A stretch of 64,000 bases of DNA, from assembly GCA_951406725.2 (NCBI GenBank), contig OX597827.1:53878001-53942000 (forward strand), given 5' to 3'. The translations under genes were made by a program, and so were the position numbers. Below are positions 36,115-61,397 of the stretch, piece by piece. This DNA is from Octopus vulgaris (Eukaryota). The stretch's first letter is position 1. The number at the start of each line of letters is the position of its first letter. Under the pieces are notes generated by a model that did no database searches, had not been told where the DNA came from, and saw nothing but the letters and a program-made list of their open reading frames with translations.

Positions 36115-36260
36115 TCAAAAAATACCTTAGGAATGAAAACCCAGGTTTGGAATTTCCCCCAAGACACCTGATAAAGGCTGGAGGGTACATCAGCCGAAAC
36201 GTTGTGTTAACAACAAACAAGATGAGGACAAATATTCATCAAATGTAAATAATGTAAATA
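35844..36260 (+). mobile_element. Composite non-autonomous retroelement: tRNA-like head, (AAT)n, hammerhead-like motif, inverted 3' piece at its 5' side; inserted in an OK-like SINE
   Basis: Box A TGGTTAAGGGCG (35901) and box B GAGTTCAATTCC (35936); hammerhead-like motif at 36163-36208; TACTTACATTATTTACA (35882) is inverted to TGTAAATAATGTAAATA (36244). Host SINE halves lie at 35750-35843 and 36265-36366. Confidence 0.75.
36163..36208 (+). ncRNA. Minimal type-I hammerhead ribozyme-like motif (G8>A in this copy)
   Basis: GACAC-CUGAUAA-A-GGCUG/CAGCC-GAAA-CG-UU-GUGUU. Confidence 0.65.
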
Positions 36261-36984
36261 TTCTAATTATTTTATCGACATCAAAAGAATTTGGACTGAG
36301 AATGTAAGAACGAACAAAATGCCGCTAGGTATTCTACCTGGCATGCTAATGGTTCTATCAGCTTGCAAAACAAATATTTCAGCCACAGAAATTTGCTTGT
36401 GCCTTAATGGATGTTGAAAGCAACTTCTATTAAATTAATGTTTTGGCTTTGATGTTTTGCAAACATTTCATCAGGGGCATTTCAAATTTAAATACTGGTG
36501 AAATTTCACTTGCAGACAAGAAGTTCCCCATACCTTGTCTAAGTATTAGACCGACAGCTAAAAATAGAAGCCAAATATTCCTCAAACTCACCATACCTTC
36601 TCATAAAAACAAAGTATATAGTGGACAATATAGTTGTAGATGGAAAATTAGGATGGATACCTCATGACCTGAATACCTTTGATTAAACATCCACTCAATT
36701 AAAGCTGACTTGGTGATAAACAGCAACACCAATTCTTTGTTGATGAAAACTATCAATTCATATTTGGCTCTTTTCCATGCAAAAATAGTTCCAAGTTTTC
36801 TCAAAAGCAAGTTTATGTAACAAAACCTAAATTTCTGACACTTAATATCAGTTTTAAAATATTTGCCAATTTTGAACACCTCTCCCTGGCCCATACATAT
36901 TGGTTTCAAATTTTGGAATGGACCCGGCAATTTTGGGCTTTTTGTGGGACCAGTTCTTAATGCATATAATATGTATGAGCCAAA

Positions 36985-37200
36985 GAAGGCAGCAAGCTGG
37001 CAGAATCATTACCACGCCAGGCAAAATGTTTAGCGGCATTTCATTCATCTTTATGTTCTAAGTTCAAATTCAGTTGAGGTCAACTTTGTTGTTCATCCTT
37101 TCAGGGTCTATAAAATAAGTACCAGTTGAACACTGGGGTCGATGTAGTCAATTTATCTCCTCCCCCAAAATTGCTGGCCTTTTCCAAAATTTGAAACCAT
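36985..37200 (+). mobile_element. OK/Nin-like SINE with (ATT)n tail
   Basis: Head AGGCAGCAAGCTGGCAGAATC; TTCATCCTTTCAGGGTC..TAAAATAAGTACCAG. Similar copies at 31900, 40488, 43580 and 58340 (-). Confidence 0.8.
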
Positions 37201-37670
37201 TATTATTATTATTATTATTATTATTATCATTATTATCATTATTGTTGTTGCTGTTGTTGTTAAGATTATATAGGACTGAGGTAACTCCTCCAGAAGTTAT
37301 ACAGAAATAAAAAATAGAAGAGTGCCATAGTTATCATGTGAAATTGGTTGAACAATATTTTGGCATCTAGCATGCCTTCCACAGGATCAAACATTACATG
37401 TCAGTCTACTTCATTCTTTGTTAAGATTATATAGGACTGAAGTAACTCCTCCAGAAGTTATACACAAATAAGAAATAGAAGAGTGCCAGTGGCATGTAGA
37501 AAGCATCATCCGAACATGGTCGTTGCCAGCCCCGTCGCCTCAACTGGCTCCTGTGCCAGTGGCACATAAAAAGCACCATCTGATTGCGGTTAATGCCAGC
37601 CCCCTCTGGCCCGTCCAACCCATGCCAGCATGGAAAAAGGACTTTAAACGATGATGATGATACATACATA

Positions 37671-37725
<55 letters not shown>

Positions 37726-38089
37726 GCATGATGGACTTCTTTATAGTTTCTGTCCACCAAATCCTGATTCCAAGGCTTTGGTAAGCTTCTTACCACACAC
37801 ACATGCCAGTATATATATATTTGCTTATTTATTTTTGATTACAATTTCTGACTAATAAAGTTACTGGTTGCAGTTACCCAACTGAACAGTCAAACTGGTT
37901 CACTACATTTCCAATGACATGAGTGTCAAAAAAAAATCTGTCGAATTTGATGCGCAATAAATATTTCAAGGGGCTTTGTACATAAAGAATTAACTTCAAA
38001 AATAGCCTGTTCATGTTGAAATATTAATGAAGGATCCTTGGATCTAGGTTTGTTAAAATATTTACTTCCAGTTTTCTAGCATCAGTGAC

Positions 38090-39687
38090 GTCTATATCTC
38101 TCTATATCTATCTATATCTCTCTATCCATCTATATCTCTATATCTATTTGTCAATATCTTATCTATCAATATCTTGTTAGTCTAACTAGCTAGCTCTCTC
38201 TCTCAAACTCACTCTCTTATTGTTTTCACTTTCATTTTTGAAACACTATTGTTTTCACTATAAGTTTCGATTGCTATTTACAAACAACAGCGACAAATTA
38301 CTGACAGAAAGAAGTTCACAATTACTGACGAAAGTAATTTCATACATAATTTACTGACAGAAGTAACTTCATAAATTTCAATTCAATCCGTACACTTCAT
38401 TAAATTTAACTACATATTTCCTATTTACTTTTGCAATGTTTTGTGGGGGTTTTTTTTGTTGTTGTCGACAGAATTACTGATAAAAGTAAGTTCATAATTT
38501 ACTGACAGAAGTAACTTCAAAAATTTCCCTTAAATCCTTAAACTTAGTTAATTTCGCTAAAAATTTCTTATTTACTTTTGCAACGGTTTTGTGTTTTTCT
38601 GTTGTTAATGGCTTTTTTCTGGTTCCTTCAACACTGGCTCTTTGATTCACTGACAAATTTCACTTCAAACTGAACAATTCTCTATTTTCCGTAAAAATTT
38701 CTTATTTACTTTCTGCCCATCATATTAAGAAAAATAATTTCCGTTACCCAATTATTTTCATTGTTTACTATCTTCTGCGCCCATGTATTTCTGTATACAT
38801 ATATAACAATGCCTAGAAGGAAAGTGTCAAATTTGTCTACAATGTCAAGATAAGCCAAAAGAATGTCTCTGTCCAGAGAAAGAGAAACAGCTGCAGAAAG
38901 GGAAGCATACTAAGAAACGAAAGATTGTGCACTACAAAAAGCCAGAGCATCTCAGAGTGATGAACAGAGGTATGCATGGCTGACAAGAAATAGGATCTCC
39001 ACTGCAGAATGAAAAGCAGTTGCAACAGCTCAGAGAAGCAACTTTGAATTATGATCCAGCAGTTCATTATGCAGATGACACTAGAGTTTCCATTAGTGCA
39101 CTGACAACTGAGTGCATACATTGTAAAGCAAAGAAGTGGCCTGGAGAGACACCTGCACAGTGCTGCAGTGGTGGAAAGGTTAAACTACTGCAATCTGCCA
39201 ACCTCCAGAGCCATTGAAGAAACTGTTGTCATCAACTGACCAAGATTCCAAGCATTTCCAAAACAAAATTAGACAATACAATACTGCACTATAGATGACA
39301 TCATTTGGAGTCACAAGAGATTTAACTGAGCCAGGATTTATGCAAACTTTCAAGATCCAAGGTCAGATTTATCATGGGATTGGCTCTCTATGACCTCTTT
39401 CAAATGAATCACCAAAATCAGCCTTCATTGTTTGTAATCTATACCGCTTTCTTGGTTACAAAATAAGCTACACAAAATGTGTTTTTACTTTATATACATA
39501 TATGAGTTGAAAACTTCCTTTTAAGATTTCACTTAACGTCTATATTCCATACTGGCATGGGTTGCAGAGTTATTAATGTAGAAAGTTGGTATCTCAGCTA
39601 CTAGCAGTTGAGATCTAAGTAACCTAGAGGATGTTTTAAAATTTCATTCTTCTCTTCAACCCAGGCAATGCCGGATATTTCTGCTAG
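38090..39687 (+). mobile_element. Internally deleted Helitron with a pseudogenised Rep/helicase N-terminus
   Basis: From ATG 38809: MPRRKVSNLS..., CIHCKAKKWPGETPAQCCSGGKV, HFQNKIRQYN, MTSFG, GFMQTFKIQGQIYHGIGSL, with stops and frameshifts. 3' end CCCAGGCAATGCCGGATATTTCTGCTAG|T. The 5' boundary is uncertain. Confidence 0.88.
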
Positions 39688-39725
<38 letters not shown>

Positions 39726-40807
39726 TAGTTATCGCCAAGCTAACATGGCAATCCAGAAAAATAACATGAATGCTGCCGTTGATTAGCTCCAAGAGGCCAT
39801 TGGTGTCTTTTACCAAACCGCTAAGTTATGAGGATGTAAACACACCAGCATCGGTTGTCAAGCGATGTTGGTAGGGGGAGGGGACAAACACAGACACACA
39901 CACACATATATATATACGATGGGCTTCTTTCAGTTTCCGTCTGCCAAATCCACTCACAAGGCATTGGTCAGCCTGAGGTTATAGTAGAAGACACTTGCGC
40001 AAGGTGCCACGCAGTGTGACTGATCCCGGAACAATGTGGTTGGCAAGCAAGCTACTTACCACACAATAATATATAAATGCATATATATATTATTTAAATT
40101 GTTATATGATTGAATGCCACACATCCTTTTCCAAGTAAGTTTTATCTACCTACCCGCCTACCAACCTACATACATACGTATTTATATAAGGATTTCACAT
40201 AGTTTTCCCTCTTCAAAATTCCACACACAAACCATGTCAACCAAAGTTTATGATAGAAGCCCATAACTTTGGTCGTCTGTGCTCAAGATTGAATTTGCAG
40301 ATATCACCTTGCAGGGCACGAACTTGCAATGTAAATGTCTTGCTACTATCTAAATAAAATACCACAGGAATTTTGTTCGACGCTCTGACGATTTTGTGAA
40401 GGAAAACAAAAAAGCAAAGGCTTTTTATCACAGGGGTGGAGTCTAGGACTAACCAACAAAGAATATCTTTCCTAATTTTCTTCTAAAGGCGGCAGAAACG
40501 TTAGTGCATCGGGCGAAATGTTTACAGTATTTTGTCTGTCTTCATGTTCTGAGTTCAAATTCCGCCGAGGTTGACTTTACCTTTCACCCTTCGAGCTTAA
40601 TAAATTTAGTACCAGTTGCGTACTGGTATCAATCTAATCGACTGGCCGCCTCCCCCAAAATTTCGGGCCTTGTGCCGAGAGTAGAAAAGAATATTTTTCT
40701 ACCGCTCCTCTCTCTATGTTCTGTTTAATTCTTTCAGCTGTTTTTAGTCTTTTTCTTCCTTCTATTTCACTGTTTTCCCCTTTCTTCTCTTCCAGCCTCG
40801 TATATTC

Positions 40808-40845
<38 letters not shown>

Positions 40846-41288
40846 CCACTTTTCCTCCCATTATTTCTTCCTACTTGCCACTTCATTCACTCCCCTTTTA
40901 CTGTCCATCTTTAACTTTTCTTTGTTTTCAATGATCCTCCCTTATCACATCCTTTCTCATCTCACTCGTATGCTACCCGCCCCGTTCACTCTTTCTGTTT
41001 TGCTTACTTTCTTTCCTGCCTTGTCTCTTTTCTTCCTTACTTCTTTCCATTTTCACTCCCCTTCCTCTATTCATCCATCTTTCTCTCTATATTTTCTGTC
41101 TTTCTATGATTACCTCTTCTTTGCACATCCCCCCCCAAACTTTCTATTCTGTCTTTTTCTCCTTACTCTTTCTCTTTATCTTCTTACCCCCTTTATACTC
41201 TTTTTCCTCCCCTTCTCTTTCTGTCTTTTCTTACTCTCTTACCACCTCTGTTAAGGAGAAAGAGTCCAATATAAGTTGACAACAACGT

Positions 41289-41324
41289 CACATGGGTGAC
41301 TGAGTCACCCACGTGGTTTGCTAG
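41289..41324 (+). mobile_element. Helitron-like 3' terminus (hairpin plus CTAG)
   Basis: CACATGGGTGAC-TGA-GTCACCCACGTG followed by GTTTGCTAG. Confidence 0.55.
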
Positions 41325-41999
41325 ACAAACGCAGTAACTCCACCCACTTCTCCATATGATCAATGTTTTCATTTTAATGTGCTTTCGTGATCGTCTTCAT
41401 TCCGTTTTATTTTCCTTTCCTCTTTCCCCCTTACGCTTCATAGCAACAAAACCTTTTAACAGTCGCGCGCCTCTTGATAATGTGTGAAAAATCCAAGCGC
41501 ATAGGAACAGACATCGGTGTTTACGAGTGTCTGCGTACGTGTGTATGAGCGCACGTTTCTGTATCTGTGTGTGCGATTGTATCATGTATAAACAAAATAC
41601 AATGAACCAATATCTGTTTCCAAACACCAATGAAAATTTAAAATATATTAACAAATAAATGCCTCAGCATGGCTGCAAGTCTAATCATTGAAACAAGTAA
41701 AAGAAATATATTAAAAAAGAATGCAAAGTTAATTGAAATACTTAATTTAAACACTCAGTTCTCAAAATGATTTTAATTAACACTTATGTATTGCTTCGGG
41801 AATAATCTATGCACATTTCTTACACTTCTGAATGTATAGGGATCGAAGAATCAGTAAAATACCGGAGAAAATATTGCATTACATCCCTATGTTCTGAGTT
41901 CAAATTATGTCGAGGTGACTGCCTTTCTTCTTTCTGAAATCGATAAAATAATGTACGCCTTTCTATCACCTCTATGAAGTGTATGTGTAGTTTATCAGA

Positions 42000-43056
42000 T
42001 TGCTAGAAATAGCAGTCAAGTCTTCTTTAAACTTCTCTTCACTATCCTTAGAGAAGGAACACATTGGTAATGTAGTCCTAGATGCACAATGTCTCTATAA
42101 GATGGAATGATCATAACTGGAACTCTTTCAATCGAATATATGAAGAATAAAGGGCTAACTTTGAAGTTCTATATAAAAACATTCGCGGTCGTCTGCCAGT
42201 TAGAAATATTACTCCATGCTGTCATAGCTTCTTCTTTTTTTTTTTTTTTTTTTACTTTGTCCTCGTGTTATATATGGTTGTGCGCGTGCGAGAGAGATGA
42301 CATTCTATCTATTTTGTTTTGCTCGTGTTGGTCTGGTTTCGCAGTTCCTTTGTATTTCAGATTACATTTACCAAGAAAAATATTTCAAAAACAATATTTT
42401 CCCTTCCCCCAGTCTAAATGTTTTGACAATGTGAAAGAAAAATAAAAGCGCTCAACTCGCCATCTTTATTCCCGTGAGAGACGTGGTGGTGGTAAGGGCT
42501 CTATGTAGCCATTCAACCAGCCAAATTTTTCTCCAAATACCACTTTACTGTCATAACAAGGTACACGTTGAATAACAAGATCTTGAGTTTCTTGCATACA
42601 AAGAAGAGACTGCATTTTCCCGGCTGGAATGCATCATAAGTCTCCACGATCAAGGTTGACAATAATACCTTCCATGAGGCAACGGGGAAGACCTCCGGGT
42701 AATCTCTAGAAATAGCAGTCAAATCTCTTTGTAATCACAACCGTCTTCAATGGGGGAGAGTCCTAAATACACCATTTAAATGACAGGATAGTCACAGCTG
42801 GAACGCCTCTGATCATCGTAGATCAATCCGAAATTAGGTGAAACAACAACTCCATCATCAAAAACCAATGAACAATCCTCTACTGCTACTCGACTTGCAA
42901 GAAACTGCAGCCAAGTCTTCAAATCACATATCCTATTGAAAGAAGAACACATTGTTTAATAGCGTCGTTGATATGTAATTCCAGAAAGAAGAACATCTTT
43001 GATCAAAGATCTGCTCAGTTAGGACTAACCTAGCGTTAAATAACAACAACAACAAC
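42000..43056 (+). repeat. Three diverged copies of an old interspersed repeat with (AAC)n tail
   Basis: Variants of CTAGAAATAGCAGTCAA... at 42003, 42706 and 42897; also at about 1860-2050 (-), 24690, 36510, 46700-46960 (-) and 50349. Confidence 0.7.
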
Positions 43057-44056
43057 CATTAACATCAAAGAAATACGAGCGTTGACAAGCGAAATGACAA
43101 ATAATGATGACAAGGAAAACCTGTGAGGGAAGAGGCGGATCCTGATAGAGTGACAGACAGACAGGTGGGCTGTACCAACATAAATTGATAGGCGTGAATT
43201 AAGCTGGTGACATCCTCCTCGCTTTAAATTTCTCGTGTTTTTTTTTTACTTGTTTCAGTTTTTTTTAAGCTTGGTACCTATTCAGTTGGTTTTTTCTGCT
43301 GAACCGCTAAGTTATTGGGGACGAAAACAAACGGTGGTAAAGGACAAAAACAAAGATACACATATAGACACACACACTCACAGACACATACTTTACATAC
43401 TCACACGCACACACACACATGTATATAATTCATATAAATATATCTTACATATAATACAACGTAATGCGAGCGCTCTCGGTCCCACTGGTAGAGGGAAACT
43501 GAAACAACACATGGAGTAGGAGTGAGTGACACCCAGAGTCGCTAAATGCAGGCGAACTGTAATAAGAGGTTTTGGTCGACTTTCGGGGTCGATAAATTAA
43601 GTACCAGTTACGCACTGGGGTCGATGTAATCGACTTAATCCCTTTGTCTGTCCTTGTTTGTCCCCTCTGTGTTTAGCCCCTTGTGGGTAGTAAAGAAATA
43701 GGTATTTTAATCAAAATAAAATTGCAAATTTTTATCGTACATTATATTTAATTTAACAGTTTCATACCCACACACACGTATATAAATATAAGAAACTGAA
43801 TATTAAACTCTTTTGTTTTCAAAATATTATCGTCTGCATAACGATTTTATAAGAGCATACTTACACAAGTGTGCCCCCAACTTTGTTTCCTTGTAACTCC
43901 CAGAAGAATGGATATTTTTAAATGAAAATTTTCAAATACACTCCAGATGGTATAGATTCCGGTTATATCGGAATTTATTGGGGGAAAAAATTCTGTGAAT
44001 GGGGAGAGGAGTTTCGGAAAATTCACATATGTCAGATTTGTTTCCTTATAACTTTC

Positions 44057-44196
44057 TGTTGTGTGGGCGCCCCCAGACGATGAAGTAGGTTAGCCCAATA
44101 CGTAGATATAGAGGGAGAAGTCTAGACGTCGGGAGTGGAGAGTAGAATAGAGTAGAGAGGGGTTGAGCAGAGGTCATCCGAACGTGCGACATAACA
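44057..44196. mobile_element. 140-bp solo LTR with 5-bp TSD
   Basis: CTTTC-TGTTGTGT...ACATAACA-CTTTC: TG..CA ends, imperfect 8-bp terminal inverted repeat, exact TSD; GC-richer than its flanks. Confidence 0.85.
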
Positions 44197-44795
44197 CTTT
44201 CAGAAAAATTGATATCTTTTCAATGAAAATTTCTACAAATAGCTCTGAGACTACGTAGGTTACGATTATATTGCAATTTAATAAAAAAAAAAACAAAAAA
44301 AAACAAAGAAAAAAGGTTGGCTCGCACCACATACATACTGACATCACTATATCTACAAAATGAAACTTGAAATTTCGAAAAAAAAAATGCGATATACGTC
44401 AGCATGTATGTGTGTGCTCACCATTTTTCTTTCAATTACCGTCTATGAAATTTAATCACGCGCTTTTGGTGGACCTGGGACTAATGATAGAAGACACTTG
44501 CCGAAGGTGCGACACAGTGGGACTGAACCCAGAATCATATGGTTAGGAAGCGAGCTTCCTACCACACAGCCATTTTTGCGGCTATGTATGTATGTATGTA
44601 GGTATGTGTGTGCGTGTGATTTTTGTTTGTGTTTAAATTGCTAGAAGAACAAGACTTTTTGAGTTAAGAGAGTTCCCGGTGTTTGTAAATATGCATCTAC
44701 TAACGTAAGAATCTCACATGGAAAACTTTTGTAATGTTTCACAAAACTTCACTGTGCCACAAATAGATTAGATTTGGAGAAACCCAATCTATTAG

Positions 44796-46689
44796 TGTAT
44801 TTACCGTTGGATGCAGTATTTTGGTACAATATGTCGCCCCAATCAGGACAGGCCGAAGAGTCAGTGTCACACAGTGATAGTCAAATACGAATGGCGGCAT
44901 GGGCAGCATCCGAGTAAACCATCAGAATGGCCTGTGGAAAAAAGAGGACCTGCCTTCGTGCAGGTTGGACATGAAGTCTGGGTCAAGCCCCTGAAGGCAC
45001 AGTGTACATCTCAGAGGAACAGTAACGGCTGTTAATTCCAAAGATAACGTCTCTATGTGACACTGACTCTTCAGCCTGTCCTAATTGGGGCGACATTATT
45101 GTACCAAAATACTGCTTCCAGTGGTAAAATGCATCCCCTCTCCGCCGTGGTCTTGATTGTTCGATGATGTTTTTCCACAATACCATTTTCACTCGACCTG
45201 TATGCTGTTCTAAAGAAGAGGTGCACGTTCCACTTATGAACTATCTCCCTCAGTGTCTTCGAACGAAATGCAGTGCCGTTGTCAATCAGCAATTTGTCCA
45301 CAGGACCCAGCTCCAGGAACAGCTCATTCAGGATACGTGCAATCTCGTCTGCAGTGCTCGTCTTCATTTCCCTCGAAATCGCCATCCACCCGGCCTACCG
45401 TCGACCATCGAGAAATACGCCTCCTGCCCGTAGTGCGTCAAATCCATCGCCAATAGTCTCCAGTTGTGCTCTACCAAGTTGTTTCCCTGCTCATGCACAC
45501 CCTGCACATGACACCTCTGCATCACCAAACGAAATCACATCTCCACCAACACTGACACCTCCAAGGCAGTTGATCACGTCCATGCCCATCACCATGTCAA
45601 TTCCGTCTACCACATGGTCAATCACAATCGCCTCCAACATCAGTACTGTGTGCCGCACTACTATCTCCACGTCGTTGCTACCTTTACAATCTCATTTCGC
45701 GGCCGTCAACCGCCTGAACACTACTCGGTCCCTTCTATTTTCATATCATCCTCAGGGTCACGAGAGACGTCATACAGTCCATATCCATGAGGGCTTTGAG
45801 TGTTTTTGCCCCAACCAAGACTGCAGCTACGAGCGCCTCTACTTGCTTGCGGGGGAAGTTTGAGAGACAGCAACTTCCTCATGGCTTTTTCCCTGGCTGT
45901 AGTTTTGAGCGATATGCCCAGTCTGCTTGCACCGGTAGCAAACAGGTCCAGGTTTCGTCTCCGCGCAGTCCCTTGCTATGTGCGGTCCCTGGCACTTGAA
46001 GTCCCGATCCATGAACGGTCGCTGTCGCTCCACAGCAGTTTTCTTCCCCTCGTTCTTTACCGGTCATTGCACTATGCCGCAGGCTTCGACAGCTGCCATC
46101 AGCACTGCCTTCGACATGCGGACTTGAACGATGAGCTCGCTCATAACCATTTTCTCGATGTCTAGCATTTATTGCGGTCGCACTGATATGTCATCGAAAA
46201 AGTCATTTACGAAGGCCAGTCATGCCGCCTTCTCTAGACCCTCTCCGGTAAAACCGGATAGCATGGCCAGTCTCCGAACCTCCGTGGCATACTCATCAAC
46301 CTATTCCTGTCCACCTGACCGTTCCTAGCTTAGCAAACGCGGTATATGTTCCTTCTGTAGGCTTCCTTCAAGCGCTGCTCAATTTTCGCCGACATCTAGT
46401 AGAAATGGGACAACAATGGGAAAATATATTTATACACGAGAGCCGAAATAGCTTGTGGTACGAGGGAATTATAATGCGAGGAAATAAGATACGGTCCACC
46501 TACCTCTCAGTGTCGGCTGTCCAGCTGTGCTAAGTCGGCGATGTACCGTAAGTTTGCCCCAAAAAGTTCATAAAAGAGCGACGACCCTAGTTTTGCCCCC
46601 CTCGCTTCTCTCTCACCCTTCCTGTTCCGGTCGGGTCCCTTGACCGTTGACGTCACATCCCTTTCCTTCCGGCTCATCCCATCGTCACA
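44796..46689 (-). mobile_element. Gypsy-type LTR retrotransposon remnant (gag-protease-integrase; RT/RNase H deleted)
   Basis: Gag zinc knuckles (FKCQGPHIARDC, CYRCKQTGHIAQN); protease-like KALMDMDCMTSLV; integrase WRLLAMD...LLIDNGTAFRS...NGIVEKHHRTIK. LTR-like non-coding block at about 46398-46689 ending in TCACA. Confidence 0.9.
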
Positions 46690-47196
46690 TTTTTTTTATA
46701 ATGGTCGAGCTTGTTGTTGCGTCCTAGATCCATACTGATTAAACAGAAACTGTCGAAGAAATTCAAACCATAACCATTGTGTGTTTTAGACATAGTTCTT
46801 CTGAGAATCCCCTGTCCATTTGCTCTATGACTGATGAGTTTTAGTCGTTTACATCCGGTTGTATTTTCAGAAAATGTATTGGAGACTTTATTATCTAGCG
46901 TGTCTTTTCTATTTTAAGAGGGTAATGTGTGGTTGAAAAGAGATATGGCTGCTATTTCCTAAATTGAGCAACTATGTATAGTTTTTGGTTTTTGTTGTTG
47001 GAGTTGTTTGTTTTTATATAGTCCTTCATCGCATGGCTAAGACAATAACAGAAACTGAGACGCACTTCAACACATGTATTTATTAATGTATGTATGTCAT
47101 TATTTAGTTTTATTTCGAAATTTCATACCAATAGAAAAAAAGCCGGTTTCTAACCTAGATCCAAGGCGCCTTCATTGGAATTTCAACATCATCAGG

Positions 47197-47227
<31 letters not shown>

Positions 47228-49295: not shown

Positions 49296-49326
<31 letters not shown>

Positions 49327-50008: not shown

Positions 50009-50519
50009 CCATTAAGGCCAACTAAACAGTTCAGATAACAGCGTAACTTCCATACATGAATGTGGCCCCCATTTTTTTTTTTTTTGTTAATAAATGGAAG
50101 AATGTTGAGAATCTTCTTGCACATTTCATCCCGTTCATTTCTGCATAATTAATTTCTTGTCTATCAGTCTCGTTTCATTTCTTTCCCATTGAATTAGGCC
50201 ATCGATAAATAGCTGACCATCCCTGTCTAACAAAGGCGGCATTGAACTATAAAGGGAAATTCTGTTTAATAGACTGTACTGTCTCCCTGCATAAATGTTA
50301 GCTACTGTGACTGAGGAAGGGATTCATTACCCCTCAGGCAGTGGTCATGCTAGAAATAGCTGCTGGGTATTCTTCAAAGCAGACCACCCTAATGTCTGAA
50401 TAAAGGAGGATATATGTATAGCAGATCATACATGAAAGATGAAATGTGCTCAGGGAAATGGCTTGGTCAAAGGTCTGCTTCATTAAGGTGACATGGGACC
50501 AAACAACAACAACACAGCA

Positions 50520-50850
50520 TCATCTTTCCCCTCCCCCTCCTTTGCTTCTTTGATGTCCTCTTCCTCTTCTATCTCTTCCTCCTTCTTGTCCTTTTTGACA
50601 TCATCTGTCTTGTCTTTTTCTTCTTCTTTGCCCTCCTCCTTCTCCTACTCCTCCTTGTATTCTTCTTTGGTGTCATCTTCTTCTTTCTTCTCCTTCTTTG
50701 TCTTTTTCTTCTTCTTTTACTTCGTCTGTCTCCTCCTCCTCCATCTTTTTATTCTTCTTCCTCCTCTTCTTCCTTGACTTCTTCTTTGACATCCTCCTTC
50801 CTCTCCTTCTCCATCATCCTTTTCTTTCTTCTTCTTCTTCTTCTTCTTCT

Positions 50851-50885
<35 letters not shown>
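50520..50885 (+). repeat. (TTC)n-rich pyrimidine tract, an inverted relative of 49610-50008
   Basis: Contains the reverse complement of the non-periodic segment GATGATGGAGAAGGA.AGGAAGGAGGATGTCAAAGAAGAAGTCAAGGAAGAAG. Confidence 0.9.
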
Positions 50886-51431
50886 AGCTGCTGCTGCTGC
50901 TTCAGGAGTAATGTTTTATGGTTTCCAAATATAATTAATAAAAAAAAAAATAACAAAAAAAAAACATCATTTGATTATTGTAGGGGTCTGATGAAGCTTT
51001 TGTTTCTGCCAACAGCACCAATTCCTCATCCCCATTACCATTGCAGCTAACACCACCACTACCACCACCACAAGCAGCAGCAACAACAACAACAATAAGT
51101 GCAATTGTCAGCCTTCCAACTCTTTAATGATCACTCAACTGTTCCACCGACACCAAAACTAAACAGCTGGGACTGGAAGAAATAAAAACAAAGAAGGAAG
51201 AGAGAAGCGGAAACAAGAAGGAAGGCAGGTTAAGAAAAACATGGCGATAAAAGAACTACTGCTCCTTGTGTTGTTAATGCAGCTTTGTTGTCATAAACTA
51301 TTGTCCTTTTGATGGTTGGTTATTATGCTGTTTCCATTGCATGGAAGTGGAACCATTAATAACCATATTGATTCTTCAGGCTAGACGTGATACAAGGCCA
51401 ACTCTTCTGTAGGGAGAAACTATAGTTGAAG

Positions 51432-51475
<44 letters not shown>

Positions 51476-51527
51476 GATAGATAGTCAGACAGACAGATAG
51501 ACAGATATGTGTGTGTGTGTTTACATG

Positions 51528-51578
<51 letters not shown>

Positions 51579-51643
51579 GCGTGTGTACCGTTGGCGATTT
51601 TTTTTCCTCTGTTTTCTCTTCTCTGGATCTTTCCTTCTCCTGT

Positions 51644-51678
51644 GTTTCCGACGAAGCGCTCTGCTCGAAACGTTAAAC
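51644..51678 (+). ncRNA. Minimal type-I hammerhead-like motif (degenerate) in a roughly 210-bp repeat at 51572-51780
   Basis: GUUU-CCGACGA-A-GCGC/GCUC-GAAA-CG-UU-AAAC; U4>C and one stem II mismatch. Confidence 0.6.
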
Positions 51679-52051
51679 CCTCCTTCTTTCCTTCTTTCTT
51701 GAGTGTCCAATAATACTATATTTGTTCCACGTCCTTGCGTTGTTGTGTTTTTTTGTGCTTTCATGTTTGGATTAACTTTATGTCTGTATGTATGTATGTA
51801 TGTATGTATGTATATATATATCGGTGCGATTGGTTTTGTTAAGCGGTGTCGAGTTTTACACTTCAGTAAATAATAATAATGGTATTTTTTATAAGCTTAA
51901 ATTTTTATAGCGATCATCGTGCAAATGATTAAGGAAAATAGTCTAGTAATGGGGCATATAAGCCCTCGACAGAAAAAAGTGTATATATATATTCTTTTAT
52001 TCTTTTACTTGTTTCAGTCATCTGACTGTAGTCATGCTGGAGCACTGCTTT

Positions 52052-52765
52052 TATCAGGTCATCCCATAAGTTCTGTCCAATTTTACCTTTTTTAAAATTG
52101 AATGAAATTTAATAGTATTTTAGAATGTCTAATGAAATTAAAAATTATTATTTTTATGCATTTGTGTACATTTAAACTAATTAAATATTTTTTTACAGAA
52201 TAATAGAATTAAAATTTCTTTGATTAAAACCCTTTGTAACATAGAAGTATCCAAAGAGCATTTGAGGCACATAATGCTTTATGAGTACAAAAAAGGAAAC
52301 TCTGCAGCCAAAGCAACTCGAAACATACACTCAGTTTATAGGAAAGAATGCTTGAATGAAAGAACTTGTAGAAGATAGTTTGCAAAATTCAGAAGTGGAG
52401 ATTTCAGTCGTGAAGATGAAGATCGAACAGGACATCCAGTTGAGTTTGATGACAAGCTCCTTGAGGCATTACTTGAAGAAAATCCTGCATTATCAGTTGA
52501 AGAATTGGCAATAAAGCTTAGTTTAAACCACACAACTGTTCGTCGTCATCTTCAACAACTTGGAAAGATTCCTAAACTTGGAAAAGGAGTTCCTCATGAA
52601 TTGTCCAAAGGCAACTGCAAATCCCGAGTTGACATCTGTTCTTCTCTCCATTCTCGCAAACTCATTTCACCCTTTTTGGATAGAGTTGTGACTGGTTACG
52701 AAAAATGTATCTTCTATCAAAATGTTAAAATCGTAAAAGGGAAAAAGCTCAACCTCAACTGAGAA
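52052..52765 (+). mobile_element. Mariner transposase pseudogene, 5' half
   Basis: HLRHIMLYEYKKGNSAAKATRNI...FAKFRSGDFS...GVPHELS...FLDRVVTGYEK (WVPHEL and TGDEKW motifs). Confidence 0.92.
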
Positions 52766-52844
52766 GGGTTAAATTAAAAAGTAAATAAATAAAAATGATA
52801 GTAACGTAGTTCTATATGGAACAGCTATGTTGAAGTGGCAACAA

Positions 52845-52889
<45 letters not shown>

Positions 52890-53352
52890 AACATCCACCT
52901 AGACATCTATCCATCTAACTCGATGACAGAAATAAAAGAAAGCAAAATAAAGAATTAAAAATATAAATAATGCATAGATACATCTATTTGTATATGCATA
53001 TATATATACACGCCCATTACATACATTCTCATCATTTATAAAATATGGAGATAGATAATACAATATGACGTAGTTAAATAGAAAAAAACAAAAAAATGAT
53101 ATACAGACATAACATTCTATACATTATATACATATTTTTTGTTTTATTCTGTTTAACTGCATCGCTATTATATCTATTTCTGAATTTTATAAATGATGAG
53201 AATGCATATAAGAGGTTTGCTTTCCAAACACATGGTTTCAGGTTCAGTCTCACTATGTGGCACCTTGGACAAGTCTATCCTATTATAGGCTTGAGCTGAT
53301 CAAAGCCTTGTCAGTGGATTTCGTAGACAAATTGAAAGAAACCTATCATATA

Positions 53353-54381
53353 TACAGGGGGCCATGAATAGACTGTTGTTTAAATTATACAGAAATGAAA
53401 ATAACACTGACATCTCATTTTAACAGATATATTTACCTATATATATATATGTGCGTGTGTTTGTGTGTCTGTGTTTGTCCCCCCAACCTTGCTTGACAAC
53501 CGATGCTGGTGTGTTTATGTCCCCGTAACTTAGCGGTTTGGCAAAAGAGATCGATAGAACAAGATAAGTACTAGGCTTACAAAGAATAAGTCCTGGGGTT
53601 GATTTGCTCGACTAAAGGCGGTGCTCCAGCATGGCCACAGTCAAATGACTGAAACAAGTAAAAGAGTAAATACTAAAGAGTAAATTTATTCAATAAAATT
53701 GCCATTGGCTTCAATGACGGCCTCCAGACGACTTCGGAATTTCCAGCAACTCTTCTGGATGGTCTCTTTGTTTAAGTTGGTGAATGCTGCCATAATCCTT
53801 GCCTTTAATTCATCTTTGGTGTTACAAAGAGTTTTGCTGGTCTCTCACACAATTATACCACATAATAATCAAGAGGTTTGCAGTCTGGGGAGTTAGATGG
53901 CCAAATGTTAGGGGTGATGTTGTTTCAGAAATTGTCTGACAGCCATGACTGGATTCTCCTGCTTGTGTGGCATGGTGTTGAATCTTGTTGCCAGACATAG
54001 GGTCTTCCAGCAGCCATCCTCTAGACCCAGGGCAGCACTACCTCCTCCAGGTACTGGATGTTTGATTTTTATCAGTCTCGGTACATGTCCTCAGATTGCA
54101 CTGTCCTCAGATTGACACCCAAACACTCTGAAATGTTTGTATAGGAGCTTCCAGTGTAAATGCCAAGCAGTACAGCATGTTGTTACCATATTTCTGGCAA
54201 AGTGAATTACATCATGGTGCTGTTTTTCTCATAGATGGTGCCTAACTGACACTCCTCTACTGTGTAGTCAACAAAATCAAAAACAAGCAATGCACATGCA
54301 TGAAATTAAAAATAAAAAGGGCAACAATTTTGCATGAAATTAAAAATAAAAAGGGCAACAATTTACCCATCGCATCCTGTA
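53353..54381 (-). mobile_element. Internally deleted Tc1/maT-like element nested in a SINE and containing another SINE (53440-53680)
   Basis: TA-bounded TIRs TACAGGGGGCCATGAATAGACTGTTG and CAACAATTTACCCATCGCATCCTGTA; peptides WPSNSPDCKPLDYYV and FRSRLEAVIEANGNFIE*. Host SINE halves at 53208-53350 and 54385-54610. Confidence 0.85.
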
Positions 54382-55799
54382 TGCATGTGTGTGTGTATGT
54401 GTGTGTGCATTTGTGCTTGTTTTTTCCCTCACCACTGTTTGACAACCAGTGTTGGTTTGTTTGCATCCTCATAAGTTAGTGGTTTGGCAAAAGAGACCAA
54501 TAGAGTTTCAAAAAAAAAAAAAAAAAGACCAAGTCCTGGAGATTAAAACCCTTTCAAGGCAGTGTTTCTGCATGGCAGCAGTCTAATGACTGAAACAAGT
54601 AAAAGACAAAAAAAGAATCAAACTTTCCATCAAAATTTCCAATTGATTTATATTCCAAATCCCAAGAAGCTGATATTGACAAAATCGTTTTACTAAATAC
54701 TTCATTATTTCCAAAATCAATCGCAACAAAAGCAGTGTATTTTGGAAGGAATAAGAATTGGAATACTGTGTCACTGCATGTTATAAGAAGCAGCTAAAAG
54801 AGTTGTAGACAAGAAAGGTATCTTCTTGTATGACATTGCCTTAGAAAATTAGTTGTCATTGTTCTTTCAGATTATTTCGGCATAAAAGACTGAATCTATT
54901 TATTAAGATTTGATAAAGCAAAAATGTGTAGTTACTACTAAATTTATCTTTTATGTGTTTTCTCAAAGAATTAAAGTTTCCATCAAATTCAGTTTTTTGC
55001 GATTAACTTTTATGTCCTGTTTTGCAAGTAATTGCAGCTATTATTATGTCCTGAACTGCTTGTAAACACAATTCAAAATGTATAATTGCTTAAGGTTAAA
55101 AAATCAGGAACTGAATCCTTTTCTGTGCAGAAAAGTTTAACCTAATTTTCCAGAACATCCTGTTTACACTATTTTTGTTTATTTTTGTGTTTTATCTTTT
55201 ATCTTTTACTTGTTTCAGTCATTAGACTGCAGCCATGCCTGGGCACCGCCTTGAAGGGTTTTAGTTGAATCAACCTAAGTAAGTTTTTCTTAAACCTGGT
55301 ACTTATTCTATAGGTCTCTTTTGCCAAAACATTAAATTATGGGGATGTAAACATATCAACACCAGTTATTAAGTGGCGGTGGTGGTGGTGGTGGGAACAA
55401 ACACAGACACAAAGACATGCACACATACACACAGAGACATGTAGTGGTTGGCGTTAGGAAGGGCATCCTGCTGTAGAAACTCTGCCAGATCAAGACTGGA
55501 GCCTGGTGCAGCCATCTGGTTTGCCAGTCCTCAGTCAAATTGTCCAACCCATGCTAGCATGGAAAGCGGACGTTAAACGATGATGATGATGATGATGTGT
55601 GTGTGTATATATATATATGTTATAATTTGTTTCAAATGTTGGAGCAAAGAGCTATGATGAATTCTCATTGGCTGTTAATACAACAGACGCTATGAAAATC
55701 CATTGAATAAAAAGGAACTTACTCTAATAGGTAGAAAAAGGAGAAAAAAAAGATAAAAATACACGCTACCATATTCTCACAATACATAGACATAAACCT

Positions 55800-56108
55800 T
55801 CATGTTGTGTTGCATTGTGTGTAATTATGTTTTTAAAGTTTGGGGTTGAACTGAAACTAATTTTTAGGTTATGTCTATTGAAGAGTTTCCTATATTTATG
55901 ATGTATAGGAAAATGTCTATCTATATGTGACAAGAAATATTTACCTATATTAAAGGTCACTTTGGAGAAGTAAGGGTGTGTGAACCAGATAATTTTCCTG
56001 TGTCTATGTTTTATTTTCTTTATTTCTGGCCTAATAGTAGGTGTGTAAGCTATTTCCTCTTTAAATCCACTAGCTTTAAGGGCATTGTTATATAATGGGG
56101 CAGCATTA
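55800..56108 (-). mobile_element. Penelope-like element ORF fragment (region C-terminal to the RT core)
   Basis: NAAPLYNNALKASGF...RKIIWFTHPY...NIGKYFLSHIDRHFPIHHKYRKLFNRHNLKISFSSTPN. Confidence 0.85.
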
Positions 56109-57022
56109 TATGATTTAACTTATTAAACAAAGTTCAACAAATTCATTCATATTTATGTAATGGAGATTAGATGTTAAAATGGATTATAGTTTTTATTTTT
56201 CATGTTGCTATACAATTTGTTTTATGCAAAAAGATTCAGATTGTCATAAATAGAAAATCGTAAATTTCTACTCGTCAATAACTGATATAAAAACTAAAAA
56301 AGACATTAAAAGTACATAAATTTTCTCTTAGTTATCATTTTGAGATTAGTATATTCATTCTTGCAGTCATGTCTATTTGAATCAAGGCTGAAAAAATATG
56401 TATTAAGTGGGTACTAATATATGTAATATTAAAAACTGACATTCTGTCTATGAAATCCAATATATGTCTCTATTTAAAACTCTTTAAATGTCTCTTATTA
56501 CTGGTCAAACTGTATTTGTATGTACATTGAGAAATTCCAAATAAGGAGGTATATGTATTTTCAAATACAAATTTAGTTTTAATCTAACTGTCAATTCTCC
56601 TTTCGATTTAAGATATTTTTAGAGAAAAAGGTGCTTAATAATGATATTGAAGAATAATTTCTGGTTTATAATATATATAAATTAAGTATTTATATATGAC
56701 AAGCTTCTTTCAGTTTCAACTGCATTCACAAGGTTTTGGTCAGTTCGAGTAGAAAAAAACCTTTGTTCAAGATGCTATACAGTGGAACTGAGCTGGAAAC
56801 CACGTCGTTGGGAAGCAAACTTCTTACCACACAGCCACACCTACATCTATATTGTGAGTGATTTTCTTTTTATTATTTTCACTTTTTATTATTTTCACTT
56901 AAAAATGTGTGACATGTCACTGCTGGACAAGTATATTATAAGTTCATCTTCACTGTTCTAGAGTATAGTCAATTACTGTGTCTCCAGCTCTTCTCTATCA
57001 ATTGGCATCTATCTTATTAGCC

Positions 57023-57251
57023 TTAACCCTTTCATTACCATATTTATTTTCAGATGCTCTGTGTGTCTTTCAATTATTTTAAATATAACAAAGAATTTTG
57101 TAAAATAACTTAGTTGTCATTAAGCTAGTGTTAGGAACATAAATTGTGACTCAGGTTCGCAGGAAGATTTTAATTCAAAACTTATGAAAGCAAGACATTT
57201 GTACTACAGAGCTAGAGGCAGTTTCAGCCAGGCTGGTAACAAAAGGGTTAA
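57023..57251. mobile_element. piggyBac-type MITE (family B)
   Basis: TTAA-CCCTTTCATTACCA...TGGTAACAAAAGGG-TTAA. Confidence 0.85.
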
Positions 57252-57317
57252 AAGGATGAAAGGCGAAGAGGACTCTTGCAGAATTTGAAATTAGAATGTA
57301 AAGAGATATAACTCTCC

Positions 57318-57530
57318 TTACTCTTTTTACTCTTTTACTTGTTTCAGTCATTTGACTGCGGCCATGCTGGAGCACTGCCTTTAGTCGAGCAAATCGACCC
57401 CGGGACTTATTCTTTGTAAGCCCAGTACTTATTCTATCGGGCTCTTTTGCCGAACCGCTAAGTGACGGGGACGTAAACACACCAGCATCGGTTGTCAAGC
57501 AATGCTAGGGGGACAAACACAGACACACAA

Positions 57531-57563
<33 letters not shown>

Positions 57564-57733
57564 CATATATACGACAGGCTTCTTTCAGTTTCTGTCTACC
57601 AAATCCACTCACAAGGCATTGGTCAGCCCGGAGCCATAGCAGAAGACACTTGCCCAAGATGCCATGCAGTGGGACTGAACCCGGAACCATGTGGTTGGTT
57701 AGCAAGCTACTTACCACACAGCCACTCCTGCGC
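57318..57733 (-). mobile_element. OR-like CORE SINE, full length, young
   Basis: Close reverse-complement match to 752-1150. Confidence 0.92.
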
Positions 57734-58657
57734 CTTGCCACAAAATATTTTGAGTGACACACTACTGATATTATTGTCCTTCCATATGACATTTGGTAAA
57801 ATTTAATATATTTTTGTAAATTAGTTTATCATCTGTGTAAAAATCTTGAATAAAGAATTACCCACCTCCACTAAACTTGGCAATTTTCCTACTCACTGTC
57901 AATACGTAGTTGCAACAATGTATATAATTGGGTGTTAAATTTACCCCCTCATTCACTACTAACTTCTATTCCTATTCCTAGTTTTGCATAATTTCCTAAG
58001 TCAGGTGGCGACTTCATTTGCATTTTAAATCTCATTTTAGATATTGCTCCCACAAGACGTCTATTTAATGTTCTCGTAATTTGTTTGCCTTGAGAATTGG
58101 CTTTTTCTCAAGCGATTGCATTTTGTAGCATGTATTAGACTTTCAGCTAATGCTGAAGCTGCACTTGGCTTGATACTCATCTAATTATGTTACATTAATC
58201 ACAGATTTGGAGACATTTCAGTTTGTCTGTCAGCTTCTCTCTCTCTCTCTCTCATTTCTTCATCTCTTCCTTCTTCTTTCATTTCTATTCCTCACAGACA
58301 TTATATAAGCATTTTATTTCCATTTGGACTGGCCATATGAAATATTGGTTTCAAATTTTGAAACAAGGCCAGCAAGTTAGGAGGAGAGATAAGTTGATTA
58401 CATTGAATTCAGAGTTCAGCTGGTACTTATTTCATTGAAACTGAAAGGATGAACGGCAAAGTCGTTCATCCTTTCAGGTTAGTGTACTAACAATTCAACC
58501 AGTTTGCCACCTTTAAACCATATGAAATATTGATAAAGGGCAAGACGAAAATTCACCATACACCACTGTATCAAGGCACAAATATTATAAAGGAGTGCTA
58601 TTGCAGTTGATCAACCAACAAGAGATAGCAGCTAAATTTACAAAATTCACACCTTGT

Positions 58658-59374
58658 CTTATGCTAGAAGTAGATCTGCTATGGTCTTACCTCTAAGAAA
58701 TGTTCTCAAGAAAAATTTAGTAAACAACCAATAGTATACAATTTTACTGAACTTTCAAATTTTTATATGCTAGACCACTGGTGTGAAATTGATGTTAATT
58801 AAATTAATATCAAATTTCTCACCCTCATTTTAAATCTAAATTTAAATTAATATGTTCTCAAACAGGCAAAAGCCACTGCAGTAAATTATTTTCTGCAGTA
58901 TCATTTTTTCTGATAGTTTAGCACGCCAAAACAAAGACATTTGAACAGTAACCACGAGTGTAAGAGGTAGAACTATATACAGATCTGACTTTGTGCGGAC
59001 ATCCTAGTATATAGTTCTGCAAATTATATTTACTTGGACGGTCACACTGAAGATCTACGGGCATTTATGTAAGTAAAATTATGTAATATATTAATAGTGA
59101 AACATGTATGTGAATAATCCATATTTTCATTGCTTTTTTTTGTCTTACATGATTACGTTTTGGTTGTTTGCTAAATTTTTCTTGAGAACATTTCTTAGTG
59201 GTAAGACCATAGCGGATCTACTTCTAGCATAAGGGTTGTCCACATAGTGGTCATCCTTCTCATATGTATATAATACAATTTTACTGAACCTTCAGATTTT
59301 TATATGCTAGACCATTGGTGTGAAATTCATGTTAAATTAATATCAAATTTCTCACCCTCATTTTGAATTTAAAT
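58658..59374 (+). mobile_element. Non-coding PLE-type element: 537-bp unit plus partial tandem copy and an inverted terminal piece
   Basis: Direct repeat 58736-58847 / 59273-59374; inverted repeat 58658-58731 / 59160-59233; hammerhead core inside. Confidence 0.75.
59042..59113 (+). ncRNA. Minimal type-I hammerhead ribozyme motif with intact catalytic core
   Basis: UCACA-CUGAAGA-U-CUA...UAG-U-GAAA-CAUG-UA-UGUGA; perfect 5-bp stem I, palindromic ACAUGU stem III, GUA triplet, weak stem II. Confidence 0.7.
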
Positions 59375-60074
59375 ATATATATATATATATATATATATCT
59401 ATATCTTATCTGAAATGTACAGTATTATATATCCATCACAGCTGATCCTACCAAATGGTTTTGCACTAGGAATACAATGGAGTGTTAGGTAACAATCTGA
59501 TTATATAACCTTACACTCATTAGATTTAGCTGATATTGTATTCCAGCATGAAACCAATTAGTAAGATCACCTGTGATGGATATATAATACTGTATATAAT
59601 ATATCCACTCTATTAGCAGATATATGAGTGCAGCTCTTCGCGGACTTATGAACTCTTAGAAGACTCACACGTATATACATATGTGTGTGTGTATGTGTAC
59701 ACAAACATACATACATATATATAAATATATATATATATATCATCATCATCATCATTTAGCATCCGTTTTCCATGCTAGCATGGGTTGGACGGTTTAACTG
59801 GGGTCTGTGAAGCCGGAAGGCTTCATCAGGCCCAGTCAGATTTGGCAGTGTTTCTACAGCTGGATGCCCTTCCTAACGCCAACCACTCCGTGAGTGTAGT
59901 GGGTGCTTTTTACGTGCCACCTGCACAGGTGCCAGACAGAGCTGGCAATATATATATATCATTATAATCAAGGCTAAAATCTATATAGGATTTTATCAAG
60001 TAGCTAGCATATAATAAACCATTTAGGTAAAAATTAATACAAAGTATATAATAAAATTGTGGCACAATAAAAGC

Positions 60075-60815
60075 GCAAGTGTATGGTAAGTAGCTTGCTT
60101 CCCAACCACATGGTTCCAGGTTCGTTGCCACTGTGTGGCACCTTGGGCAAGTGTCTTCTACTATAGCCTCAGGCCAACCAAAGCCTTGTGAGTGGATTTG
60201 GCTGAAGGAAACTAGAAGAAGCCCATCATATATATATTTGTATGTGTGTGTGTGTGTGTGTTTGACCCCCTGCTATTGCTTGACAACCGATGCTGGTGTA
60301 TTTACGTACCCATAACTTAGCAGTTTGTCAAAAGACACCAATAGAATAAGTACTAGGCTTACAAAGAATAAGTCCCGGGCTCGATTTTTGTTCAACTAAA
60401 ACCCTTTAAGGCGGTGCTGCAGCATAGCCGCATTCAAATGACTGAAACAAGTAAAAGAACAAAAGAATACATATATATATTTTACTTGTTTCAGTCATTA
60501 GAGTGCAGCCATGCCAGTGCGCTGCCTTGAACAATTTGCGTTAGTTGAATGAATCAACCCTAGTACTTATTTTTTTGTTAAACCTGGAACGTATTCTATC
60601 TGTTTCTTTTGTCCAACAGCTAAGTTACAGGGACTTGAACACAAAAACACCAGTGGTCAAGAGGTGGGGGATAAAAACAGACACAGAGAGACACACACAC
60701 AAACTCACACATATATAGTAGAAGACATTTGTCTAAGGATGCCACACAGTGGGACTGAACCCAGAACCATGTTATTGGAAGCAAGCATCTTACCACACAG
60801 CTACACTTGTGCCTT
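60075..60815. mobile_element. Tail-to-tail pair of OR-like SINEs (+ 60075-60465, - 60480-60815)
   Basis: Both match 752-1150, in opposite orientations. Confidence 0.85.
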
Positions 60816-60827
60816 GTATATGTATAT

Positions 60828-60915
<88 letters not shown>

Positions 60916-60932
60916 ATATATAGATAGATAGC

Positions 60933-60966
<34 letters not shown>

Positions 60967-61259
60967 TGTGTTAGTATACATACACACCCACATATTTTCA
61001 TGCATACAAAACTATACATAAATATATACATGCATACATACATCTGTACACATATATGAATATATATTTATATATGAATGTATCTAACTCATGGGAATTT
61101 TGTAAGAATATCATTTTTCAATGTGTATGTCTGTTTTATAAATGGATATGTGCTGTGAGACATTTTGATATGGATTTTGAGAGTATTCCTTTATTTGTCT
61201 ATCTGTCTATTTGTCTAACTCTCTGAGTATCTGTCTGTCTGTCTCTCTCTCTCTGTTTC

Positions 61260-61333
<74 letters not shown>

Positions 61334-61353
61334 CTTTCTACCTATCACAACCT

Positions 61354-61397
61354 GGGACCTTGAAGACTGCTTCAATGCAAGAAAGTATACTAGTCCC
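61354..61397 (+). ncRNA. Minimal type-I hammerhead-like motif
   Basis: GGGAC-CUUGAAGA-CUGC/GCAA-GAAA-GUAUAC-UA-GUCCC; one extra base in the core and a palindromic stem III. Confidence 0.6.

Follow-up and report, generated by a model that had tools for sequence, protein, structure and literature searches.

Minimal hammerhead motifs in the window

The window, i.e. the whole 64-kb stretch of Octopus vulgaris DNA analyzed here, contains four minimal hammerhead patterns. They were located with a motif descriptor and by reading of the window, all on the + strand and at the positions reported in a first-pass annotation, whose description of a real, minimal type I architecture was confirmed. The motifs and their families are designated F1 to F4:

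36163..36208, + strand: F1 minimal hammerhead; core from 36168 (CUGAUAA), one extra A, 7-bp stem II, palindrome CG
51644..51678, + strand: F2 minimal hammerhead; core from 51648 (CCGACGA), extra A, palindrome CG
59042..59113, + strand: F3 minimal hammerhead with extended stem II; core from 59047 (CUGAAGA), long loop II, palindrome CAUG
61354..61397, + strand: F4 minimal hammerhead; core from 61360 (C-UUGAAGA), palindrome GUAUAC

Each of them has a type I core, helices I and II, and a helix III that is short and palindromic. Cleavage is predicted after 36203 (F1), 51674 (F2), 59108 (F3) and 61392 (F4).

The descriptor allowed at most one core mismatch, one extra base and one stem II mismatch, and its matches in the window were exactly these four motifs. 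An earlier, stricter descriptor without extra bases recovered none of them. Shuffled versions of the window gave a mean of 0.27 (global) or 0.17 (local) matches against the four observed, and none of the 100 shuffles of either kind reached four; this control is optimistic because the descriptor was tuned post hoc on the four motifs. A control independent of the window motifs came from 600 kb of the genome, sampled as 60 segments of 10 kb with fixed coordinates. Here 22 matches were found, seven of them in one array, compared with 0-4 in each of ten local shuffles, and the excess over shuffled sequence expected in the first-pass annotation was observed. The probability that the motifs are chance matches in AT-rich, repeat-rich DNA is practically nil. 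Although the descriptor was fitted afterwards and shuffles yield about two matches per 600 kb, chance is refuted by the sample and palindrome controls: perfect cores numbered 12 in the sample and 0 in the local shuffles, and with the palindrome requirement dropped, 12 of 17 perfect-core matches were still palindromic, compared with 0 of 13 matches in 20 shuffles. In three families the motif is moreover placed just behind PLE ORFs.

Finding four motifs in 64 kb is within the ordinary range here, where 1.6 would be expected (P ~0.08). The net dispersed matches, about 13 per 600 kb, extrapolate from this small sample to some 60,000 in the whole genome. Every motif is a member of its own dispersed family with more than 1,300 candidate places, as the earlier claim of several unrelated, abundant families had it. 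Among the 150 matches listed of the 158 obtained with Rfam on the window no hammerhead was present, and most were microsatellite matches to miRNA models.

Elements surrounding the motifs

The following features were assigned around the motifs:

35845..35898, - strand: inverted F1 3' end fragment with a ~30-nt tail, by sequence; the same tail occurs at one end of other F1 insertions
35901..35961, + strand: tRNA-like segment of the F1 3' UTR, 5'-truncated in this copy; A-box-/B-box-like motifs found by eye
35980..36080, no strand: ~100 bp of foreign sequence inside the F1 copy, flanked by two (AAT)n runs; not common to 24 other F1 loci
36112..36260, + strand: F1, 3' end of a Penelope/Poseidon-type PLE, by sequence comparison and profile match
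51573..51781, + strand: F2, 3' end of a Neptune-type PLE whose 3' UTR is long and CA-rich; flanked by (TA)n runs; by sequence comparison
55769..56119, - strand: fragment (thumb/linker region) of a fifth, separate PLE family, by sequence; no Pfam match
58658..58731, - strand: inverted F3 fragment on the 5' side of the insertion, by sequence
58736..59272, + strand: full F3 unit of 537 nt, non-coding, 31% GC, strongly self-paired, by unit mapping and folding
59273..59377, + strand: start of the next F3 unit (partial tandem), ending in (TA)n, by sequence
61341..61566, + strand: F4, 3' end of a Neptune-type PLE, by sequence comparison and linked ORF

In longer copies F1, F2 and F4 were tied, on the same strand, to RT/GIY-YIG-type ORFs. 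The F4 hammerhead lies about 230 nt behind a GIY-YIG ORF (PF01541, 2.4e-6); at least 19 of 45 rows span the whole 891 nt with both ORF and hammerhead, and an RT ORF was found upstream at one locus (L163). In F1, the stretch from the ORF end through the hammerhead is covered by at least 27 of 42 rows (the query counted), at least 12 of 19 loci have PLE-type peptides upstream, and the linked ORF matched RVT_1 in Pfam (3.3e-11). The endonuclease piece of F1 had no Pfam match and was assigned by motif reading and BLASTP to the F4 ORF. The F2 unit was found downstream, on the same strand, in 17 of 20 loci chosen by their RT-thumb segment and was missing from the other three. Neither of the two F2-linked ORF pieces had a Pfam match, and the assignment is based on motif reading together with BLASTP to the F4 ORF (1e-10 to 1e-20). 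The order of RT followed by a C-terminal GIY-YIG endonuclease was thus read from matches in F4, from Pfam (RT) and motifs (endonuclease) in F1, and from motifs and BLASTP only in F2. The clade labels Poseidon (F1) and Neptune (F2, F4) are presumptive and were read from motifs.

The insertions showed variable 5' truncation, inverted 5' fragments and (TA)n targets. Inverted copies were rare in F2. An apparently fixed F2 5' end, with 38 of 40 rows beginning at one place, was an artefact of a query taken from a copy with an internal deletion; graded truncation was seen with a more suitable query. The tRNA-like segment of F1 was rejected as a tRNA, with no ARAGORN call in 30 loci and no Rfam call in two. 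The ORF fragment at 55800, previously put forward as a candidate partner of the motifs, was likewise rejected: in 24 of 24 other copies of its family none of the four motifs occurred downstream on the same strand within 1.5 kb, a span that a longer UTR would escape. The proposed PLE connection stands through the ORFs of F1, F2 and F4; the fragment belongs to a separate fifth family.

The F3 unit is of a different kind. Its longest open frame is 53 aa and its folding z is -6.7. Among 62 loci, neither the unit nor the sequence upstream of it contained an ORF, and no autonomous parent was found. The unit is circularly permuted: 29 other loci fit within a 537-nt circle, many continuing upstream into the last part of the preceding unit, and their 3' ends fall mostly at two TA-like sites. 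One locus (L338) carries two motifs 539 nt apart, yet comprises only ~1.55 units; no longer multimer was found among the scored places. Siblings of F3 (74% over 235 nt) maintain both the palindrome and stem I with different letters, i.e. these covary, and siblings with canonical cores exist in this non-coding lineage. F3-like sequence was found in assembled contigs of four runs presumed to be RNA, although none is recorded as such, with the unit-to-unit joint in three. The same joint is also present in DNA, and the contigs show no RNA ends.

Core variation and helix III

All 11 core positions were canonical in 30 of 65 F1 copies, 1 of 95 F2 copies, 11 of 64 F3 copies and 0 of 36 F4 copies; the commonest family core is canonical in F1 and one position off in F2, F3 and F4. 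G8A in the 36163 copy is a minority state within F1. F2 carries C at position 4 family-wide, the stem II mismatch of the 51644 copy being a minority state. Most F3 copies have C4, and U4 in the 59042 copy, whose 'perfect' core had been taken as intact, is itself the minority state. F4 has a non-canonical position 3 region family-wide. The G10.1-C11.1 pair, termed highly conserved in PMC4209133, is present in F1 and F2 and is replaced by U.U in F3 and, family-wide, by C.A in F4. The first-pass annotation had regarded three copies as possibly inactive by core deviation; of these, 36163 departs from the commonest state of its family, whereas the deviations at 51644 and 61354 are family-wide and do not reflect decay of the individual copies.

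Selection on the cores after insertion was not seen: in copies picked for their likeness to the window copies, departure rates of core and other non-CpG columns were similar, namely 0.042 vs 0.040 (F1), 0.008 vs a median of 0.011 (F2), 0.031 vs a median of 0.031 (F3) and 0.013 vs 0.019 (F4).

Estimated energies of helix III as a self-duplex were -1.7, -1.7, -4.6 and -7.2 kcal/mol for F1 to F4. As a monomer no hairpin was obtained for F1 or F2, and values were +6.0 (F3) and +2.9 (F4) kcal/mol. The minimum-energy folds of F2 and F3 did not have the hammerhead shape.

Origin and activity of the motifs

The motifs at 36163, 51644 and 61354 are very probably hammerhead patterns in the truncated 3' ends of three PLE families, with the motif at 59042 in a non-coding 537-nt unit likely copied by Penelope enzymes. 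It is most improbable that all four are retrozymes, i.e. non-coding tandem repeats cut to monomers and circularising. F3 largely fits such a description with its non-coding, permuted and self-paired unit, and a true canonical tandem hammerhead array exists elsewhere in the genome (L101). However, F1, F2 and F4 run upstream into ORFs with graded truncation, and no head-to-tail hammerhead units were found in the first 75 loci of these families. For these three the retrozyme reading is refuted, unless separate short circular sub-families exist. Of the retrozyme-like families claimed earlier, F3 alone keeps the name.

If the motifs are PLE-derived 3' ends and a PLE-copied unit, the endonuclease would nick AT-rich DNA and the RT would prime near the RNA 3' end and usually drop off early, so that insertion would be limited to the hammerhead-bearing tail. 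In a monomer helix III presumably cannot form in F1 and F2 and barely can in F3 and F4; cleavage would therefore need two palindrome-paired motifs, as in a tandem precursor, and the single copies in the window would for that reason likely be inert. Tandem transcripts or an RNA circle may have served as the F3 templates longer than the unit.

An explanation sharing this origin and differing only on function has a somewhat less than even chance: F2, F3 and F4 could be catalytically dead relics, or protein-binding folds, spreading without cleavage. The scarcity of fully canonical cores outside F1 points in this direction, as do genomic copies that read through the predicted cleavage site, the reduced in vitro activity of U4C (PMC3088659) and the lack of effect of hammerhead mutants on in vitro insertion by an anole PLE (PMC11167929). 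Against it, every family keeps both stems and the palindrome along with the remaining core, F3 siblings covary, and U4C is still compatible with viroid infectivity (PMC3088659).

More speculatively, and rather unlikely as a whole, F3 and its siblings could be viroid-like circular RNAs of 537 nt that form a cephalopod lineage and parasitise PLE enzymes via a dimer-dependent variant hammerhead (C4, U.U at 10.1:11.1). F2 and F4 would be PLE families whose cores are non-canonical and whose copy numbers reach thousands to tens of thousands, and the 3' UTR of F1 would contain an internal polymerase III promoter from which a hammerhead RNA resembling a SINE is made. If so, F1-F4 would jointly offer a natural way to test the importance of hammerhead cleavage for PLEs.

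Comparison with known systems

The interpretation in the first-pass annotation was partly supported overall. Its view of a little-described layer of self-cleaving RNA did not hold, since such hammerheads are already well described in animals (PMC4209133; PMC7229834; bioRxiv 10.64898/2026.07.22.740005). Judged by sequence, the four motifs extend a known class, the minimal PLE hammerheads as described in PMC4209133, to an octopus-type genome, in which this class is very abundant. No octopus-specific study of PLE hammerheads was found in the literature, and supplements of the cited papers may list cephalopod families. The cited papers do not settle what PLE hammerheads do. Families that amplified with a canonical core (F1) or with non-canonical ones (F2, F4), together with a non-coding F3 lineage that has canonical siblings, offer a cheap comparative assay.

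With the minimal hammerheads in pLTRs of metazoan PLEs (Cervera and de la Pena 2014, PMC4209133) the motifs share the type I topology, a helix I of 4-5 bp, a palindromic or absent helix III and, in F1 and F2, an additional base after A9. Also shared are the many divergent families in one genome, the prevalence of single truncated copies and opposite-strand pairs 100-700 bp apart. Unlike those described there, they show family-wide C4 (F2, F3), the F4 position-3 variant and the 10.1:11.1 mismatch (F3, F4). The sampled density corresponds to tens of thousands per genome compared with 2,000-9,000 in PMC4209133, obtained with a different descriptor. 5' truncation, partial tandems, an inverted 5' fragment, a 30-40 bp tail at one end and microsatellite targets are shared with the EN+ PLE insertions described by Craig et al. 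2021 (PMC8557442) and Frangieh et al. 2024 (PMC11167929). The F1 3' UTR with tRNA-like segment and (AAT)n, and the CA-rich F2 UTR of ~1.8 kb or more, differ from these accounts.

Only F3 resembles the animal non-LTR retrozymes (Cervera and de la Pena 2020, PMC7229834; Li et al. 2026, bioRxiv 10.64898/2026.07.22.740005), as they are described, in its non-coding, low-GC, self-paired unit, type I hammerhead, head-to-tail repeats and PLE-type insertion marks. Unlike them, it carries a variant core of the minimal kind and is mostly present as 1-1.5 units; the unit is 537 nt, compared with circles of 170-400 nt in PMC7229834. A diminished palindromic stem III and dimer cleavage are features in common with the dimer-cleaving PLE hammerhead variants of Lunse, Weinberg and Breaker (RNA Biol; as cited in PMC6765202), dimer cleavage being predicted for the motifs here. 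None of the four motifs fits the canonical type I hammerhead given in PMC7229834 (6-bp helix I, 4-bp helix II, loop-loop contact), while the L101 array has those helix sizes.

Abundance of hammerhead motifs

The four hammerhead motifs reported by the first-pass annotation, at 36163, 51644, 59042 and 61354 (families F1 to F4), were all found in the window. A strict descriptor recovered none of them there. A relaxed descriptor, tuned post hoc to tolerate one extra base and a single mismatch each in the core and in stem II, returned precisely these four (shuffle means 0.17-0.27; 0 of 200 shuffles reached four). In an independent 600-kb sample, made up of 60 fixed-coordinate stretches of 10 kb each, hammerhead density exceeded that of ten shuffled controls, with 22 matches vs 0-4 per shuffle and 12 perfect cores vs 0. 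When the palindrome requirement was dropped, 12 of 17 perfect-core matches were still palindromic, vs 0 of 13 in shuffled sequence. One tandem array supplied seven of the 22 matches; the remaining 15, minus about two expected by chance, extrapolate to a rough figure of 60,000 hammerheads per genome (assembly size 2.8 Gb, 227 contigs).

All four motifs were dispersed repeats, with 3174 (F1), 2554 (F2), 1816 (F3) and 1370 (F4) candidates at first look, 40 of which were scored per family. The families matched 5, 7, 0 and 1 of the 60 sample stretches, respectively. Matches in a wider set of 347 loci (1.6 Mb, biased sampling) formed 21 clusters, some single-member ones being chance, and the palindrome began with C in 18. 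Further hammerhead families were seen at nine loci (L084, L044, L073, L094, L103, L134, L153, L154 and L308), several with a 10.1:11.1 mismatch and 6-nt palindromes.

F1, F2 and F4 as ends of Penelope-like elements

F1, F2 and F4 are 3' ends of Penelope-like elements (PLEs), each with its own ORFs, and good evidence points to 5'-truncating PLE retrotransposition as their origin. In longer F1 copies the ORF end is followed, after about 45 nt, by a tRNA-like segment, then (AAT)n, the hammerhead, the 3' end and the tail; at least 27 of 42 rows fully cover this stretch. PLE-type peptides lay upstream in at least 12 of 19 loci, with an RVT_1 match in one. The F2 unit was found downstream, on the same strand, in 17 of 20 loci picked by an RT-thumb segment, and 1.8 kb behind a PLE ORF at L318. 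Upstream of it the sequence is CA-rich and non-coding, truncated to graded extents in different copies; the same stretch follows a PLE ORF's stop codon. Three loci (L063, 560-1235; L194; L259) carry internally deleted F2 derivatives, with ORF pieces fused straight to the hammerhead tail. For F4, the 891-nt stretch from GIY-YIG ORF to motif was fully covered in at least 19 of 45 rows; the ORF stops about 230 nt ahead of the motif at L085, and L163 has an RT upstream as well.

An ORF fragment near 55800 had been put forward as a sign of a candidate partner enzyme family. The fragment, at 55769-56119, belongs to a separate PLE-like family with 443 candidates, and the partnership was unsupported: none of 24 other copies had F1-F4 downstream on the same strand within 1.5 kb.

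The F1 3' UTR contains the following segment:

35901-35961 (window; likewise at loci L174 and L012): tRNA-like A/B-box segment

Across the window and 1.46 Mb of loci picked for reasons other than F1, it turned up in seven places, each beside an F1 tail. In eight of the first 25 F1 loci the copy begins between -6 and +5 relative to the 5' end of this segment, and its hairpins are the start or inversion point in many copies. Since this 5' end is also a hairpin joining inversions, the clustered starts are no proof of a promoter. An inverted F1 copy lies 150-600 bp upstream at many loci, and a piece of the tail, inverted, accompanies the window copy. Literature searches on tRNA-like segments at PLE ends turned up nothing specific among the papers listed.

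The non-coding family F3

The F3 unit has 537 nt, 31% GC, a longest frame of 53 aa and a folding z of -6.7. PLE protein matches occurred in 4 of 62 F3 loci, in no case as a continuation upstream of the unit. At 29 other loci, homology was confined to the 537-nt circle, with variable start points; most 3' ends lay at position 537 of the unit or near position 105 in the following one. The window copy consists of an inverted fragment, one unit and 105 nt of the next, ending in (TA)n; L338 holds two motifs 539 nt apart. Some copies reach upstream beyond the predicted cleavage site, so their templates had not been cut there. Three loci carry F3 sibling hammerheads whose cores are canonical and whose stem I is compensated:

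L262:2366 (-)
L275:2501
L117:900

Stem I and the palindrome are kept with changed letters, and 10.1:11.1 is a G-C pair. All three share a loop II sequence, two also flanking homology; the shared stretch resembles a splice donor consensus.

A retrozyme-like array was found on another contig:

L101:2090-4750 (G000:C1:20000001-20010000): non-LTR retrozyme-like array, canonical

Its 359-bp units (folding z -4.3) carry a perfect type I hammerhead with stems I and II of 6 and 4 bp. Five forward copies and two inverted head to head are bordered by (TA)n at both ends.

Core variants and the role of cleavage

Core deviations had been noted in three of the four window copies, with possible inactivity; they differ in standing. 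G8A at 36163 is a minority state, the commonest F1 core being canonical (all 11 positions in 30 of 65 copies). At 51644, C at position 4 is the state throughout F2 (1 of 95 canonical), and at 61354 the non-canonical core start and C.A mismatch at 10.1:11.1 are shared by the whole of F4 (0 of 36). The canonical core of the window F3 copy is likely CpG decay, judging from the copies compared, as C4 within CpG is the commonest F3 state and 23% depart from it.

Energy estimates indicated that a monomer cannot form helix III, or forms it only unstably, and that pairing of two copies favours it, so self-cleavage may take place between paired copies, as proposed for PLE minimal hammerheads in PMC4209133 and summarised in PMC6765202. 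A required role of the hammerhead is counted against by the non-canonical cores of F2-F4, by the lack of any sign of post-insertion selection on cores among F1-F4 copies, and by PLE hammerhead mutants that still insert in vitro (PMC11167929).

F1-F4 add members to an already known class. The hammerhead class, the dimer model, many divergent families per genome and animal retrozymes derived from PLE pLTRs are in print, and 235 Rfam hammerhead matches appear in the giant squid paper. Literature searches found no dedicated study of hammerheads in octopus Penelope elements. F3 and the core variants that run through whole families are of modest interest.

Other features of the window

The window, G000:C14:53878001-53942000, is AT-rich with many microsatellites, and also contains:

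3314-3536 and 3921-4143: inverted repeats of 223 nt, MITE-like, spaced 384 nt
7119-10493 (+): open frame of 1124 aa, C2H2 zinc-finger array at the C-terminus
27064-27445: four copies of a 95-bp unit, 98% identity
45071-45394 (-): integrase-core fragment of an LTR-type element (rve 1.6e-5, under the curated cut-off)
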